DNA of 13,163 bases from Thermoproteota archaeon (GTDB taxonomy: Archaea; Asgardarchaeota; Njordarchaeia; Njordarchaeales; Panguiarchaeaceae): positions 1 through 13,163 of the forward strand of contig JANJXX010000016.1 of the NCBI GenBank assembly GCA_024720975.1, given 5' to 3'. The translations under genes and the position numbers were made by a program. Under the pieces are notes generated by a model. The model was not told the origin of the DNA. It was given only the letters and a program-made list of their open reading frames with translations, and searched no databases. Within the stretch, counting starts at the first letter, position 1. Every line of letters starts with the position of its first letter. This document shows, in pieces, positions 161 through 13,163 of the stretch.

Positions 161-604
161 CCCAGCAGCCTTAATTATAACCTTGACATCTTTACCGCCT
201 AAGAGGACTTCAGACGTAATCCTGCAATTCCCTCTTCAATGCTCCGCTTGATCTAGCTGACTTCAGGCGGCATCGGAGCATTTTTGTTACATCAACCAAC
301 CTTAACACATTGAATCAACTTGTGTAGAATTAGCCTCTCATCATGCTTAGTCCACCCCCCATATGACCGCCTTAATCCAGGCAATTGCTTGATCAATATC
401 ACGCCTGGTCACACACTCCAGATCAAAGTCCCATGATGCAGGGGAGAGTCGGAGTTAACTGCAATTTTGCTTATTCTGCTGTGGAGACACCAAGCTTACT
501 AAGTTATCCAGAAATTGGGAGCAGCCTCACCGTTATAACTGTCTAGCGATGACCTGCCTATAGCGCTTAGAACCCTTATTATAACTGTAAATAGCGCTCC
601 TCAT
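161..604 (-). pseudogene. Degraded N-terminal part of an archaeal tyrosine recombinase/integrase (multiple frameshifts and stops; catalytic domain absent)
   Basis: Manual translation across frames from ATG 604 gives MRSAIYSYNKGSKRYRQVIAR / NGEAA / QFLDNLVS / LGVSTA / RISKIAVN / DFDLECVTRRDIDQAIAWI / RRSYGGWTKHDERLILHKLIQCVKVG*CNKNAPMPPEVS*IKRSIEE / CRITSEVLLGGKDVKVIIKAAG. This follows, in order, the N-terminal SAM-like region of archaeal tRNA-associated integrases as I recall it (D-x-E-R-x-x-A-W-I-N...W-T-K-H-D...L-R-K-L-I-Q...P-E-V-S-W-I...L-L-T-x-E-E-V-K-x-x-I-x-A-A). It starts 57 nt past the tRNA 3' end. Confidence 0.8.
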
Positions 605-661
605 GTTGAATTCATTATTCCAAACTTAAAAGAAGTAGGGAATTTGGAACTCTAGAGACAG

Positions 662-744
662 TGCCGGGGGCGGGACTTGAACCCGCGAGGCGCAAACGCC
701 ATCGGATCTCGAGTCCGACGCCGTGCCAGCTCGGCAACCCCGGC
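662..744 (-). tRNA. tRNA-Ser (anticodon CGA), long variable arm, no intron, CCA not encoded
   Basis: Reverse complement folds as GCCGGGG TT GCC GAGCTGGCAC GGC G TCGGA CT-CGA-GA TCCGA T GGCG TTTG CGCC TC GCGGG TTCAAGT CCCGC CCCCGGC A. Acceptor, anticodon, variable and T stems all pair perfectly. Confidence 0.96.
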
Positions 745-881
745 CTTTGTATGGACGCCAGCGACATCAAGCTAGTTGTCTATAATATTAACTGATTTAT
801 TGATGTGCCTATATAATCCCTAACCGAAAGTTCTTCCTTAAGAAAAAGGTGGAGGCGACTAAAGTGCAGCTGTAGGATATG

Positions 882-1082
882 TCAGATCTCTTGTAGCAAT
901 TTTTTCAAGGATTGATTTTCTGGTAACTTATCAAGTAGCTCCTTATTGCTTTCTAGAATTCTTTGAACGTGCTGCCTTATTGCTTCTCGTATGAACTCAG
1001 AACGCGAACCGTAAAGTCCTAACTCGTAGACTATAAAGTCTATGAGTTTGACTAATTGACCGGAAATTTTTATCGTAATCAT
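882..1082 (-). CDS. Ribbon-helix-helix (CopG/Arc/MetJ family) transcriptional regulator
   Basis: MITIKISGQLVKLIDFIVYELGLYGSRSEFIREAIRQHV has an alternating beta-strand followed by the SRSEFIREAI helix motif. Start is uncertain: ATG at 1082 chosen, but the frame is open to GTG 1157. Confidence 0.85.
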   Translation of the reverse strand: MITIKISGQLVKLIDFIVYELGLYGSRSEFIREAIRQHVQRILESNKELLDKLPENQSLKKLLQEI

Positions 1083-1178
1083 TCGTGTTTGATTTTGTAA
1101 CAAAGCGTACACCCGTTTAGGGCTCTGGACTAATAGGATAAAAGTCAAAAAAAGCACTAAATAAATGTTGCTTGTTAC

Positions 1179-1186
1179 TTTATAAA
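1179..1186 (-). promoter_or_regulatory. Candidate TATA box (TTTATAAA) for the RHH gene
   Basis: Consensus archaeal TATA in the intergenic region upstream of the RHH ORF, next to an inverted repeat at 1191-1224. Confidence 0.4.
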
Positions 1187-1412
1187 GACAATATCCACGG
1201 GTTCATCATGGATTCGTGGAATATCCCCTATTAACTATTTGGTATTGCATAAGTATTTCGCTTTTAACATTATTGTTCTAATCAACTAAAATAACGTCTG
1301 GCTCCGATTTATTAAATATTGGCTGAAAAAGGCTGCAATCAAGATGAGTTAAAATGCGCTAAGATCCAGTTGCTTTGACAGCATCATCAATTGAATAAAT
1401 CTTTACACGGCA

Positions 1413-1436
1413 GCTTTTGCTGCTGGCAGCAAAAGC
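1413..1436 (-). terminator. Perfect inverted repeat/hairpin just downstream of the GTPase-longin unit
   Basis: GCTTTTGCTGC-TG-GCAGCAAAAGC (11-bp arms), 22 nt after the stop at 1459. No long U-tract follows, so terminator function is inferred from position only. Confidence 0.45.
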
Positions 1437-1458
1437 CTAATGAGTCAATTGCAATTCC

Positions 1459-2145
1459 TTAAGTCTTTAGAAACTGCTTAACGTTATCATATATACGTTT
1501 ATTTATAATTGCATATTTTTTATCGCTTAACTTCAAGATTATAAAGTCGCTAGGATTCTTTATGAAATCATTAACCACATGCCTATTGGCTGGATAAATA
1601 ATGTTAAATCCCAAATCTAGAATCACCATGTTATTTGCGAAATATGTATCCCCTAAAATTCTGTGTTCTACCCCTTCATACTCGTGTGGTTGACTAGCAT
1701 GAGAGGAACTAATTACTCCTTTTACAGCCGTGTAAACTTTCTTGACAAGTTTTTCTATTTCATGTTTAGTCAATAGTGAAACTTCTGATAAAAGCTCAAG
1801 GACACTTGACTCTATATGAGGTTCTATCTTCGATAATATCTCTACTATTGTTTCCTTTCCTAATCTTCCATCAAAGGCTAGTACTATAGCCGCTTTCTTG
1901 GCTTTTCTTGGCAGGGTTTCGTGCCTAATCAAGAAGGGATACGTATACACTATTAGAGAACCTGCCTCAAATAAAGCTTTGTTGTTCATGTACAGCGCAC
2001 TATCTGCTATTAAATAGTTGGTCTCTAGATCCAACGGAAAGCTCTCTGGCAAGATGTGTGATATTATCGGACCTTCTACCTCATCAAACTCTGCAAACCC
2101 AGCAAAGAATAGTTTTTTGTTAATCTCCCGCTCTTGTACACTCAT
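1459..2145 (-). CDS. NPRL2/Npr2-like longin (uDENN-type) domain protein, candidate GAP
   Basis: N-terminal FAEFDEVEGPIISHILPESF matches the longin/uDENN F-x-x-x-x-G-P hairpin (human NPRL2 from memory: [20 protein letters not shown]). YPFLIRHETLPRKAKKAAIVLAFD aligns without gaps to NPRL2 [24 protein letters not shown]. Overlaps the upstream GTPase gene by 26 nt. Confidence 0.75.
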   Translation of the reverse strand: MSVQEREINKKLFFAGFAEFDEVEGPIISHILPESFPLDLETNYLIADSALYMNNKALFEAGSLIVYTYPFLIRHETLPRKAKKAAIVLAFDGRLGKETIVEILSKIEPHIESSVLELLSEVSLLTKHEIEKLVKKVYTAVKGVISSSHASQPHEYEGVEHRILGDTYFANNMVILDLGFNIIYPANRHVVNDFIKNPSDFIILKLSDKKYAIINKRIYDNVKQFLKT

Positions 2146-3130
2146 GACCTATCGTCTCTAGATAAATTTTTGAAAATAGTACTTCAACCGCCTTCATTGC
2201 ATACGCATCTAGAGCATTGGCTTTATTCCTTGCATTGATCAATGTCAGACTGATGCTATGTTCCTTGCATTGAAATATATATGTCAATATCTCGCTTTCC
2301 TCCAGTGCTAAATTTAAACGAATTTTTATGGTTCTGGACGAGTTTAGCAACCTTATGTAAGCTTCATCTTTTAAGCTATTAGCGATCTCTTTCTCGCGCT
2401 CTAAGGACTCAATAATCCTCGCAGCAAACGCCGCTGACCATGACGTTAGGCCTGAGTTACCACTAAAAAATATAGGAAGTCCCATGCCATCGCCTATAAT
2501 AACGGCCTCAGCTTCTGCGTAGTCTCTAAGATAAGTTAGCATACCTTTTATAGAATTCACCGGAATAATCTTCGATAACACAAGGTCGGCAATAACTCCG
2601 AGCAATGAAGTTGGCATGAAAATACTGGTGTCGTATAAATGCAGATTTATATGCGGAAAGGTCTTTGAAATCTTCTGCATTACGCCATTACTGAAAATAT
2701 TCTTGACGCTCAACGATCCAGTAAGATCTTGTTTATGCGCCAGAAATGCTACCTCAATCTTTTCGCGAGGGAAGGTCTTTTGGAAAACTGCTTCTACTTT
2801 ATTCATGATTTCCATGAACTCCTTCAGATAATCGTCCATTTTTGTTCTTTCCGACGCGTCAACGACATACAAAATCACTGATTTAGGATCGATAATTCCG
2901 CACAAATATTCGAAGTTTCGAGCTTTGAATCGCTTCTGGCCGGGCGTTACGAAAATGTTCACTTGAAGCGCTAAAACTAGTGTTTTGAATCGCTCAATAG
3001 ACGTCGATGGTGTCGTGTTCAATGCAAATGACCTATTCGCTGTTGCAAGGAACCTTGCTATTGAGGTCTTTCCGGAGTTTGCTGGACCCAATATGAAAAT
3101 TTTTGCTACTCCATTCGACTGCGAGACCAT
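2120..3130 (-). CDS. Rag/Gtr-like small GTPase with C-terminal roadblock domain
   Basis: G1 GPANSGKTS, switch-I Thr (PSTSIE), G3 variant VTPGQ, ILYVVDAS strand, Rag-type G4 HKQD and G5 TSI. The C-terminal ~150 aa start with helix-strand-D-x-x-G-L-P-I (LTYLRDYAEAEAVIIGDGMGLPIFFS), typical of roadblock domains. Confidence 0.85.
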   Translation of the reverse strand: MVSQSNGVAKIFILGPANSGKTSIARFLATANRSFALNTTPSTSIERFKTLVLALQVNIFVTPGQKRFKARNFEYLCGIIDPKSVILYVVDASERTKMDDYLKEFMEIMNKVEAVFQKTFPREKIEVAFLAHKQDLTGSLSVKNIFSNGVMQKISKTFPHINLHLYDTSIFMPTSLLGVIADLVLSKIIPVNSIKGMLTYLRDYAEAEAVIIGDGMGLPIFFSGNSGLTSWSAAFAARIIESLEREKEIANSLKDEAYIRLLNSSRTIKIRLNLALEESEILTYIFQCKEHSISLTLINARNKANALDAYAMKAVEVLFSKIYLETIGHECTRAGD

Positions 3131-3262
3131 ATAAAATCACACTATTTTCTTAATGTTCAAGAAACCTATAACCCATCACGGGAGATTACATCCTCAAAGG
3201 ACTTCTTGATGTGCTTATAAGGCGTTTATGATTATTGTCCTAAGATTTACGGTGACCTACTA

Positions 3263-4607: not shown

Positions 4608-5153
4608 TCACCTAGACACTATAGACATTGATATTTTCTCTAAGATTGCTTTCAATAATACACTTTCAAGCGGCTCACTTCTAGATTCTGCTTGAAATGC
4701 AAGTTGAGCTTCATCAAGATCATATATGCTGAGGATTTTATTAATGTTAGCTTGACATGAGCTGGAAGCAACTTCTTCAATGACACCTTCACTCACTAGT
4801 TTGTTATATAATTCGCATACATCTGTGCTCTTAGAGTACATAACTAGCCAGCATACATTTGCTGAGATGCCTTTTATTATATCGATGACATCTCTTATTT
4901 GTGTCCTTGCAAAGAGACGAAGAAGAAACTCTATGTGAGACTTTTTTGCTATATTTTTTCCGCTATTTAGGAGTTCTAAAGTTAGATCTAGAATAAATTT
5001 TAAGATTACACCATTAACAACTAAATCACAAGGTATAACTTGAATTAAAGTATCGGTTCCACTGAAATTCTCAATCACTTCTAGAAGCTTCTGCCGATTT
5101 TTGACAGCAACTATTTTTATAACTTTATCAGTTTCCTCGTGAACTCTACTCAA
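4608..5153 (-). CDS. cgi121: KEOPS complex subunit Cgi121
   Basis: NIAKKSHIEFLLRLFARTQIRDVI matches the Cgi121 signature (N-x-A-x-x-x-x-x-E-h-L-h-x-h-x-x-x-x-Q-I-x-x-A-I). C-terminal ILEKIS and ~180 aa length also fit. TTG start. Confidence 0.85.
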   Translation of the reverse strand: MSRVHEETDKVIKIVAVKNRQKLLEVIENFSGTDTLIQVIPCDLVVNGVILKFILDLTLELLNSGKNIAKKSHIEFLLRLFARTQIRDVIDIIKGISANVCWLVMYSKSTDVCELYNKLVSEGVIEEVASSSCQANINKILSIYDLDEAQLAFQAESRSEPLESVLLKAILEKISMSIVSR

Positions 5154-11472: not shown

Positions 11473-11784
11473 CTACCTACTAGTTGGCAACTTACATTCA
11501 GCCGGCCGTAGATGCTCGATTCTGGCGATCACTTTCTTTAATTTGCCTCCATCCCTAACCAAAACGACGAAGGCTTTACCTCGCTTTTCAACTATCTCGC
11601 CTATCTTACCGTGAAATCTTTTGTATGGAGCACCCTTGTGGATCGATGGATCTATTTTTATGACGACTTTTTCTCCTATCTTGTAGTCGTATATTATTGC
11701 TGAGATTGGTGGCAAACCTCTATCTTTAGGACCTTTCGAAAGTAGTTGCCTCGTTCCAGATCTTGGTCCTCTAGATCCTCTCAC
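11473..11784 (-). CDS. rpl21e: 50S ribosomal protein L21e
   Basis: SRGPRSGTRQLL, GEKVVIKIDPSIHKGAPYKRFHGKIG, RGKAF, DGGKLKKVIARIEHLRP. GTG start with GGTGA/GGAG upstream. Confidence 0.97.
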   Translation of the reverse strand: MRGSRGPRSGTRQLLSKGPKDRGLPPISAIIYDYKIGEKVVIKIDPSIHKGAPYKRFHGKIGEIVEKRGKAFVVLVRDGGKLKKVIARIEHLRPAECKLPTSR

Positions 11785-12280
11785 TCCTGCTCACCAAACG
11801 AAATCTTTCGATTAGTTCGCTTTTTTCTTCATCCTCGATAGATCTTAATACCTTCTCAACGAATCTTTTGCTCAGAGATAGATACTTTGAAAGTTCGTAT
11901 AAAAAGAATGCTATTAGACTTATTGTTGAGAGACCTCCTTCCACATCCGTCGCGTCTGTCGAGCTGTCGCGATACATAACTTCAGGGGCAGATACTCTGC
12001 CAACATCCTTCTTAACGATTAATCTAAGATCTTGAATAATTTTTTCGTCGACACTGGAAAGAACAAAAAGTGCGTCCATATTTCGCGGCTCAATGTGAGT
12101 TACGCGACTGCCAATTCTAAGGATATAAATAGGAACAGATGAGCCAGCTAATACCATTGTAGTCTTATTAACGGATAATTCAAATTTTGATGCCAAAGCT
12201 AATTTTATTAATACGTTATTCAACAATTTCCAGGTATTCTCCTCAGAGATTATTCCAAACACCAGCTCCAGGATAAACAC
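11771..12280 (-). CDS. Highly divergent 2-oxoacid:ferredoxin oxidoreductase gamma / IorB-like protein
   Basis: Size (169 aa) and the segment SVPIYILRIGSRVTHIEPRNMDALFVLS resemble the gamma-subunit 'h-R-I-G/S...D-h-h-h-x-L' region. The N-terminal G-x-G-G-Q-G motif is absent. Directly follows an alpha-like gene. Confidence 0.5.
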   Translation of the reverse strand: MFILELVFGIISEENTWKLLNNVLIKLALASKFELSVNKTTMVLAGSSVPIYILRIGSRVTHIEPRNMDALFVLSSVDEKIIQDLRLIVKKDVGRVSAPEVMYRDSSTDATDVEGGLSTISLIAFFLYELSKYLSLSKRFVEKVLRSIEDEEKSELIERFRLVSRSERI

Positions 12281-13163
12281 CTACGCCAAGATCGCCATCT
12301 TCTTGAATTTTTTGAGCTTGTCTATGATTTTATCCAAATCATACTCTGCAAGATCTATCATTGGAATACTCATTCCAGTGCGCTTTAACACATCATGAAG
12401 CTCATTTTTTAACTTGCTTAATAACCCCTTTTCGACGAGGGACGTGTCTGCGATTATAATCACTGTTTTGTCATTCTCTTTCAAGAGGAATTCAAAGATA
12501 TCAAAGAACTCAGTTAAATGCGACATGTGCACAACAACAATCATATTCTCGCTCTTAAAAACGCATTTAGCCAGTTCTTGGATCTCTAAACTGCTGGCAT
12601 CAGGTAAGCCCAATGATAATGGCTTAATACACAAAACGCTGAATTGCCTTCTGCCAGTTATGCCCTTGATAAATTTACTAATAGCATCTGGCACTAAGAA
12701 ATAAATCTCGTTTCTTGTTTGTATTTTTAGCACATCTTCTGCTCTCGCACCAAGTGCTAAAAAATCCTTAAGAGATTGCGAAATGTCTAGGGAATCTATT
12801 GAGACTGATCCGTCTAAACCCTTGGATATATCGACGATTTCTGGTATCCACTTGAGCTCTCCTCTAGCTACTAAGTCGTAAGCTAGAGAATGTATTAGCG
12901 GCTTTATGGTACCAGTCTGATCGGCTACTACAATATACTTATGGTTCTTGAGTACATCAACCAAGTGGTTTGCTAATGACGAATCAAATTTCAAAATCCC
13001 TATGAGACGAACCATATCAAGCATCTTTTGTGCTAGAAGCACGTTAAAGATCGATTTAAACACAACACCAAATGCTAAAGCAACCACGGGTCCAGATCCA
13101 ATTTCTATCGTTGATGTATCAATTGTCATTGAAGTCTTTGTTTCTACCGGTTGAGATGATATA
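12281..13163 (-). CDS. Highly divergent indolepyruvate/2-oxoacid:ferredoxin oxidoreductase alpha (IorA)-like protein, 5'-truncated by the window edge
   Basis: Frame stays open from 13129 to the window end (ISSQPVETKTS-M). GSGPVVALAFGVVF...VLKNHKYIVVADQ resembles PFOR domain II (transketolase C-like). MIVVVHMSHL...KTVIIIADTS sits where the TPP-binding GD...DN motif would be. Confidence 0.5.
   Translation of the reverse strand, partial: ISSQPVETKTSMTIDTSTIEIGSGPVVALAFGVVFKSIFNVLLAQKMLDMVRLIGILKFDSSLANHLVDVLKNHKYIVVADQTGTIKPLIHSLAYDLVARGELKWIPEIVDISKGLDGSVSIDSLDISQSLKDFLALGARAEDVLKIQTRNEIYFLVPDAISKFIKGITGRRQFSVLCIKPLSLGLPDASSLEIQELAKCVFKSENMIVVVHMSHLTEFFDIFEFLLKENDKTVIIIADTSLVEKGLLSKLKNELHDVLKRTGMSIPMIDLAEYDLDKIIDKLKKFKKMAILA

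Follow-up and report, generated by a model that had tools for sequence, protein, structure and literature searches.

We analysed a stretch of 13,163 nucleotides of archaeal DNA (hereafter, the window), which is contig 7 (JANJXX010000016.1) of a Njordarchaeales genome from the Asgard archaea (assembly GCA_024720975.1; 1.36 Mb, 81% complete, 40% G+C) and is present in hot-spring metagenomes. Two genes on its minus strand encode a Rag-like GTPase with a roadblock domain (P0001, 336 residues) and a protein with a longin domain (P0002, 228 residues). In eukaryotes, Rag GTPases and longin-domain GTPase-activating proteins (GAPs), namely GATOR1 and folliculin, are the amino-acid-sensing input to TORC1. 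An earlier note on this DNA had read the two genes as a Rag GTPase with an NPRL2-like partner, encoded by two open reading frames (ORFs) that overlap by 26 nucleotides; this overlap was confirmed at positions 2120-2145. The features of the pair, in window positions, are as follows:

2120..3130, minus strand: P0001 gene, Rag/Gtr-like GTPase of 336 residues with a C-terminal roadblock domain (Pfam Gtr1_RagA, structure model, Foldseek)
2576..3106, minus strand: G domain of P0001, about residues 9-185 (motifs in the translation, alignment A1)
2162..2560, minus strand: roadblock domain of P0001, about residues 191-323 (topology of the model, Foldseek)
1459..2145, minus strand: P0002 gene, GAP-type longin protein of 228 residues (structure model, Foldseek, VIA)
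1696..2115, minus strand: longin domain of P0002, about residues 11-150 (VIA, hhalign)
2068..2073, minus strand: Gly25-Pro26 of P0002, the GP motif at the start of strand beta2 (alignment, structure model)
1906..1908, minus strand: Arg80 of P0002, candidate arginine finger in the beta4-beta5 loop (hhalign to NPRL2)
1468..1659, minus strand: C-terminal alpha/beta domain of P0002, residues 163-226 (structure model, pLDDT 85-92)
2120..2145, minus strand: overlap of the two reading frames, 26 nucleotides (ORF coordinates)

The overlap suggests translational coupling, and we infer that the two genes form one transcription unit in which they are co-transcribed and translationally coupled. The data sets listed for the locus are hot-spring DNA metagenomes and include no RNA run, which counts neither way. 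Conservation within the two families was read from an alignment of seven GTPase-family sequences (A1), one of 12 longin-family members (A2) and a wider alignment of 14 longin domains. Structures were modelled as single chains with AlphaFold2 (AF2), whose confidence is given as pLDDT (predicted local distance difference test), and matched with Foldseek and VIA-align (VIA); profiles were compared with each other by hhalign.

P0001 Is a Rag-Like GTPase With a Roadblock Domain

The best Pfam family of P0001 is Gtr1_RagA (PF04670), with 54.1 bits (1.9e-14) and a cut-off of 22, followed by Arf with 37.5 bits. The P-loop reads G15-x4-G20-K21-T22, with Ser at position 22 in three of the seven family members, and both G4 (H132-K133-Q134-D135) and G5 (T168-S169-I170) are invariant in all seven. 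The replacement of NKxD by HKxD in G4, together with TSI in G5, is a feature of eukaryotic Rag proteins. The G3 motif departs from the canonical form: P63-G64-Q65 is invariant in the seven sequences, and Val61 stands where the canonical Asp is expected (V61-T-P-G64-Q65), so that the Gln of DxxGQ is kept and its Asp is absent throughout the family. Because this Asp is absent, P0001 is classed here as a Rag-like GTPase of archaea that carries a roadblock domain, not as a RagA or RagC orthologue. The family also has no conserved Arg beside the Thr of switch I in alignment A1, and an arginine supplied in trans is therefore plausible.

The AF2 model of P0001 has a pLDDT of 76, and its C-terminal half shows the order alpha-beta-beta-alpha-beta-beta-beta-alpha that is the roadblock topology. 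In Foldseek it is matched best, at E-values from 2e-15 to 1e-11, by the Lokiarchaeal LokiRagO (8yl2) and by chains from the Gtr1-Gtr2 and RagA-RagC structures. These alignments are full-length and include the roadblock domain, covering about 326 of 336 columns with alignment lengths of 317-345 columns. The claim that the first gene codes for a GTPase with Rag-type HKxD and TSI motifs fused to a roadblock domain is thus borne out by invariant motifs, family score and structural matches alike. The roadblock domain probably serves as a dimerisation platform.

The same genome carries two more Rag-like GTPases with a roadblock domain, both on contig 24 (91794-92657, plus strand, 288 residues; 43706-44563, minus strand, 286 residues). 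Both have AHKQD and TSI, neither has a longin neighbour, and they could be dimer partners of P0001 or independent switches. On contig 19, at about 71500-75460 (loci L054 and L056), lies a small GTPase of 210 residues that consists of a G domain only, scores 31.9 bits with Gtr1_RagA and looks MglA-like by eye. It adjoins an ORF of 389 residues with an N-terminus that is actin-like by eye, and a Roadblock/LC7 gene is found about 1.6 kb off.

P0002 Is Predicted to Adopt a Longin Fold of the GAP Class

The AF2 model of P0002 (pLDDT 84) has the longin topology beta-beta-alpha-beta-beta-beta-alpha at residues 13-121, followed by a helix at 127-150, and its best VIA Z-score is 11.6. Foldseek placed the Lokiarchaeal longin 8yqg at the top, together with chains from GATOR1, SEAC and FLCN-FNIP2 structures. 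The 18 best entries in VIA, with Z between 8.8 and 11.6, are all GAP-class longin complexes (GATOR1/SEAC, FLCN-FNIP2, Lst4, C9orf72-SMCR8) or 8yqg; the generic longins VAMP7, Ykt6, Sec22 and adaptin sigma/zeta reach at most 8.2. With the GATOR1 entries 9o5a, 9o5d and 7t3b, residues 11..149 of P0002 run collinear with residues 6..144 of the chain (Z 10.7-11.3, 18-20% identity).

The family of P0002 is very small: a set of 1.84 billion proteins contains 13 representatives, and those that have a label are annotated as hypothetical. A single-sequence search of the PDB with P0002 returned no meaningful match, and the full-length family profile gave helical noise only. When the profile was limited to the longin domain, human NPRL2 was the top match in the whole PDB, with an E-value of 0.038 that is marginal alone. 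This match (6ces_N, confirmed to be NPRL2) rests on the signature F-x-E-F-x3-G-P-x-I-x4-P-E-x-F around the GP motif. The profile-profile comparison of the family with vertebrate NPRL2 residues 1-150 gave a probability of 75% and an E-value of 2.5e-5 over 79 columns. Pfam Folliculin (PF11704) in turn matches four of the 12 family members, with a best E-value of 6e-5 and P0002 itself not among them. The nearest Atlas clusters to P0002 are Asgard proteins, and about one fifth of their members carry NPR2 or Folliculin.

On model and profile evidence, we assign P0002 to the GAP-longin class, within which NPRL2 cannot be told from folliculin or SMCR8 as its nearest eukaryotic paralogue. The label NPRL2-like is too specific, because Pfam NPR2 matches none and Folliculin four of the 12 members and the structural scores tie among GAP-class complexes. 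P0002 is accordingly not filed as a member of the NPRL2 family, the support for NPRL2 being at the profile level (E 0.038; probability 75%). Of the earlier proposal, a GAP-type longin is supported, here with a GP motif and an arginine aligned on Arg78; the specific link to NPRL2 is not supported. Likewise, of the families and folds that the earlier note expected structural and profile searches to return, Gtr1_RagA, roadblock and longin were recovered, but NPR2 was not.

Two marks in the longin domain carry this class assignment further. Gly25-Pro26 is invariant in all 14 aligned longin domains, and strand beta2 of the model starts at residue 25; a GP motif at the start of beta2 has been reported in FLCN, NPRL2, SMCR8 and C9orf72 and not in non-GAP longins, and the combination of GP and an arginine finger has been described as specific to GAP longins (PMC12290439). 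Arg80 lies in the loop of residues 75-81, between the strands 64-74 and 82-92 of the model, and is aligned by hhalign with Arg78 of NPRL2, the arginine finger of that protein (PMC8534245). In alignment A2 the column holds Arg in ten of the 12 members, and in the other two an Arg stands within one residue; in the Gerd-type family described below, the equivalent Arg75 is invariant in all eight aligned proteins. Arg80 is therefore a candidate arginine finger, as judged from these alignments. The C-terminal domain of P0002 gave a weak match to Pfam bpX2 (E 0.005) and, in one relative, a hint of CTD1 that is also weak; the Atlas feature search had no usable match for it.

The GTPase-Longin Pair Is Conserved Beyond Local Synteny

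A longin-domain profile was run against 300 genomes of the phylum, and junction distances in relatives were measured from the first in-frame start codon. In all eight genomes of the Njordarchaeota-labelled order that have the longin, its gene is directly preceded, on the same strand, by the Rag-like gene; the junctions range from the 26-nucleotide overlap of the window to a 4-nucleotide gap, with 14 nucleotides as the longest overlap among the relatives. All the surroundings of the pair are syntenic inside the genus (aIF2-gamma, PIN, ThiL-like, NAD kinase), and its conservation at that level is therefore little informative. A different family of the same order has other flanking genes and still keeps the GTPase-longin pair.

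The same order of GTPase and then longin is found at all ten assessable loci of a second family, labelled Candidatus Heimdallarchaeota or Gerdarchaeota in NCBI (Gerd-type), with longins of 331-360 residues and gaps of 19-61 nucleotides. Comparison of the Njord-type with the Gerd-type longins shows homology along 217 columns (probability 93%). Across the pairs, the longins are 16-30% identical and the GTPases about 25%. In three Gerd-type genomes, each with 6-12 small GTPases, the linked GTPase scores 91-104 bits with the Njord-type profile, over both the G and the roadblock domain, and the others score at most 50. Because no other GTPase of these genomes comes near the linked one in this score, the Njord- and Gerd-type operons are, on profile scores, orthologous units and not chance neighbours. 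At the Gerd-type loci L023/L030 (G261:C1), an ORF that starts at L023 2619 (plus strand), after the longin gene, is metallophosphoesterase-like by eye (GDxxDE, GNHD); this gene is not present in Njord-type loci.

In one genome of a third family (L061, G040:C15) the order is reversed, with a longin protein of 454 residues (1372-2733, minus strand) followed by a Rag-like gene (324-1247, minus strand). The GTPase scores 95.7 bits with Gtr1_RagA and has a canonical DVGGQ motif. The 454-residue protein has an N-terminal FLCN-like longin with G-F for G-P and an A-R-G loop, and its C-terminal half is long, hydrophobic and apparently multi-pass; this pair may be a membrane-anchored version of the module. 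Finally, in a Loki-type genome (L059, G164:C11; 1497-2858, plus strand), a single ORF of 454 residues joins a GP/Arg longin, a GTPase domain with its P-loop at residue 173 and HKFD at 278, and about 130 further residues. This natural fusion matches the L-G-R architecture described in MK-D1 by Tran et al. (PMC10933270). Two or three Asgard lineages thus keep the pairing where general synteny does not account for it, and one fusion adds to this, which answers in the affirmative the question, raised by the earlier note, of whether the neighbourhood is conserved.

Asgard GP-longins also occur with no GTPase neighbour, namely those of 162-184 residues in a Harpocratesius-labelled family and those of 394-425 residues in a large family (f12). 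In L057 (G076:C142; 1103-2527, plus strand), and likewise in L058 and L066, a GP-longin N-terminus is fused to TackOD1 (Pfam 1.6e-30), with a weak Mrr_cat match; these proteins fit the longin/two-component-type fusions noted by Liu et al.

Flanking Genes and Other Features of the Window

Two further features border the pair:

3131..3262, no strand: divergent intergenic region common to the aIF2-gamma gene and the P0001/P0002 pair, presumed promoter (gene layout)
1413..1436, no strand: perfect 11-bp inverted repeat, 23 nucleotides past the longin stop codon (RNAfold)

The upstream neighbour of the pair is a divergent gene for aIF2-gamma, identified by Pfam GTP_EFTU and eIF2_C, and the region between them is presumed, from the gene layout only, to be the promoter of the pair. 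A membrane protein was considered as a part of the unit and rejected, since the upstream gene is the divergent aIF2-gamma gene and nothing on the same strand is conserved there; in the other family of the order, a polytopic membrane protein is encoded divergently at that place.

Downstream, the arms of the inverted repeat are separated by 2 nucleotides, and RNAfold draws it as 10 pairs with a 4-nucleotide loop. The folding energy is -18 kcal/mol, and the z-score of the 67-nucleotide stretch versus shuffles is only -1.2. No T-run follows the hairpin, the terminator scan gave no call there, and no comparable inverted repeat was found downstream of the longin gene in four relatives. For these reasons a conserved closing terminator was rejected: the perfect hairpin that had been said to close the unit exists, with its 11-bp stem, but the terminator role is not supported.

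On the same strand, 301 nucleotides 3' of the longin gene, lies a gene for a ribbon-helix-helix (CopG-type) protein of 91 residues (882-1157, minus strand). One close relative has this gene downstream as well, in another it is inverted, and it probably does not belong to the unit. Three ORFs of the window have no Pfam family (11771-12280, minus strand, 169 residues; 12281-13129, minus strand, 282 residues; 4608-5153, minus strand, 181 residues), the last of which is conserved beside aIF2-gamma in relatives.

P0002 as a Candidate GAP of P0001

The reading that we favour, tentatively and at slightly under an even chance, is that the longin protein P0002 is the cognate GAP of the Rag-like GTPase P0001, the two genes thus encoding a switch and its off-switch. 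The G domain of P0001 would provide the catalytic Gln65, and its roadblock domain the probable dimerisation platform. P0002 would dock on the GTP-bound G domain through its beta1-beta2 face, where Gly25-Pro26 is located, and would bring Arg80, which sits in the beta4-beta5 loop, into the nucleotide pocket, with faster GTP hydrolysis as the outcome. Beside the GP motif, Arg80 would complement Gln65 of P0001, and a homodimer of P0002 would replace the eukaryotic longin heterodimer. Binding of the two proteins, GAP activity, stoichiometry and homodimeric action are what we infer here. The GAP reading is supported because the genome has only one such longin, the pair is conserved, a fusion exists, and the longin bears the GP and Arg marks. 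A complex prediction with the full-length GTPase, the longin, GTP and Mg scored 0.01, which is below the mark, with controls not run, and speaks neither for nor against binding.

Several observations weigh against this reading. The sequence links of the P0002 family to eukaryotic GAP longins are weak: P0002 reaches the curated threshold of no Pfam or NCBIfam family, Pfam NPR2 (PF06218) matches none of the 12 family members even at E 10, and the full-length Gerd-type profile is not significant versus NPRL2 (probability 0.2), aligning only in the longin part. Arg80 is not strictly invariant in its column, being shifted by one residue in two of the 12 members. Eukaryotic GAP longins are heterodimers in larger complexes, and no second such longin was found here: the operon holds no NPRL3- or FNIP-like longin and the 81%-complete genome gave one longin-profile match, in a search that a more divergent longin could escape. 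Most platforms built of longin and roadblock domains are guanine nucleotide exchange factors (GEFs) or scaffolds, not GAPs. Moreover, the G3 of P0001, P-G-Q without the Asp, resembles that of MglA, and the GAP reaction of MglA with MglB works without an arginine in trans.

The longin could also be the cognate partner of P0001 and yet act as a GEF or as a platform specific for a nucleotide state, with Arg80 and the GP motif in a structural or binding role. This is how most longin and roadblock platforms act (TRAPP, Mon1-Ccz1, DENN, Ragulator); generic and GEF longins still match the P0002 model at Z 6-8; and the conservation of the pair and the fusion point to a partnership but are silent on activity. 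For an Asgard operon that encodes a roadblock protein, a DENN protein and a Rab-like GTPase stated not to belong to the Rag family, a GEF role has also been proposed (Liu et al., 10.1101/2020.10.19.343400). We nevertheless consider a GEF or platform fairly unlikely, given that a GP motif with a loop arginine has been reported in GAP longins only (PMC12290439), that both Foldseek and VIA rank GAP-class longins above GEF longins, and that Arg80 is aligned with the catalytic Arg78 of NPRL2. A non-catalytic role, in which the longin is a constitutive structural subunit that pairs its sheet with the roadblock domain of the GTPase and substitutes for the second Rag of the eukaryotic heterodimer or a Ragulator-type anchor, would agree with the one gene of each kind per operon, which fits a 1:1 stoichiometry, and with the common core of longin and roadblock domains, which form dimeric platforms (PMC10933270). 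The C-terminal domain of LokiRagM is, moreover, among the structures that match the longin model (Z 6.6-7.2). Such a subunit would, however, leave unexplained why the GP motif is invariant and the loop arginine conserved, and the two further Rag-like paralogues of the genome could supply dimer partners; we regard it as distinctly improbable.

The two genes might, at last, be neighbours only, and the longin might act on another target, be it a Rag-like paralogue, the MglA-like GTPase of contig 19 or a protein that is not a GTPase. The genome indeed holds three Rag-like genes and an MglA-like GTPase, many Asgard GP-longins (the Harpocratesius-labelled family and family f12) lack an adjoining GTPase, and in MK-D1 the GTPase genes as a rule do not share operons with longin or roadblock genes (Tran et al., PMC10933270). 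Against this, the adjacency survives the rearrangement of all flanking genes and a large sequence distance (16-30% identity for the longins, about 25% for the GTPases), the linked GTPases are specific orthologues of one another, and a fused form exists. Mere neighbourhood is, in our judgement, more improbable still.

Evolutionary Meaning of the Pair

The PI3K/PIKK (TOR-type) kinase domain PF00454 was not found in the 81%-complete genome, and any output of the GTPase/longin pair would therefore be independent of TOR. This agrees with the absence of the TOR kinase from Asgard archaea reported by Liu et al. (10.1101/2020.10.19.343400).

The pair is a candidate forerunner of the eukaryotic Rag switch, and could in that sense be called ancestral. 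A fuller scenario, which we think somewhat unlikely in its entirety, would be that the operon is a surviving minimal form of a precursor of Rag-GATOR1 and Rag-FLCN, in which a single homodimeric longin was the arginine-finger GAP. This precursor would have been present in the common ancestor of the Njord- and Gerd-type Heimdallarchaeia, in the absence of TOR, Ragulator and lysosomes, and the NPRL2/3, FLCN/FNIP and SMCR8/C9orf72 pairs would be later duplications. If P0002 is indeed a GAP, the Rag-longin switch would predate TOR, Ragulator and lysosomes, and the origin of the eukaryotic longin heterodimers by duplication would gain support. P0001 and P0002 are suited to binding, GTPase and structural assays, because they are small, soluble and from a hot-spring organism.

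Comparison With Known Systems

MglA-MglB, a small GTPase and its roadblock-dimer GAP encoded in the same operon in bacteria and archaea, is similar in being a prokaryotic operon of a small GTPase with a regulator of the roadblock/longin superfamily, and the G3 motif of MglA is likewise P-G-Q without the Asp. It differs in three respects: the regulator of our pair is a longin that offers a candidate arginine in trans, P0001 falls with Rag and not with MglA and has a roadblock domain of its own, and a separate MglA-like gene is found in the genome near a roadblock gene.

With GATOR1/SEACIT (NPRL2-NPRL3-DEPDC5 or Npr2-Npr3-Iml1, the GAP for RagA/B or Gtr1), the pair shares a longin with the GP motif, an Arg on Arg78 and an N-terminal signature around the GP motif, as well as a GTPase made of a G and a roadblock domain with HKxD and TSI. 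Unlike GATOR1, it has one protein of 228 residues in place of three subunits, and both partners are encoded in one operon; Pfam NPR2 does not match, and no NPRL3-like longin, DEPDC5 or TOR kinase domain was found in the genome. The likeness to FLCN-FNIP (Lst7-Lst4, the GAP for RagC/D or Gtr2) lies in the same longin class and in the Folliculin matches of four of the 12 members, and FLCN-FNIP2 and Lst4 chains tie with GATOR1 in structural score to P0002 (Z 10.1-11.4). Unlike FLCN-FNIP, P0002 has neither a DENN domain nor an FNIP-like partner.

Within the Asgard archaea, P0001 shares the architecture of G domain and roadblock with the Lokiarchaeal LokiRagO (8yl2), its best structural match, with LokiRagM (8zla, 9m28) and with the G-R proteins of MK-D1; its identity to the Lokiarchaeal Rag-like GTPases is about 17%. 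Crystal structures of Lokiarchaeal Rag-like GTPases and of one Roadblock-Longin protein are in the PDB, and no paper describing them was found in the open literature. The L-G-R proteins of MK-D1 fuse the three domains that the P0001/P0002 operon encodes in two genes (PMC10933270). Abundant RagA-like GTPases, NPRL2-like longin families and Rag-longin fusions are known from Asgard archaea (Liu et al., 10.1101/2020.10.19.343400). In 2025, longins that carry a GP motif together with an arginine finger were described from this group, and ArfR or Rag/Gtr GTPases as their partners were posed as a question (PMC12290439). P0002 belongs to the same protein class and the same phylum as these GP-longins and NPRL2-like families, its own family being narrow, and in neither study did we find a conserved operon with a Rag-like GTPase.

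We found no published description of a conserved operon of a Rag-like GTPase and a GAP-type longin in the literature searched, outside of which most subscription journals lie. For the question left open in 2025 (PMC12290439), the conserved 1:1 operon gives a concrete GTPase-longin pairing, which is supported by orthologous copies in a second lineage, a pair in reverse order in a third and a natural fusion. The parts, Rag-like GTPases and GAP-type longins, have already been published in Asgard archaea; the apparently new element is their pairing in one operon, with an output that would be independent of TOR.

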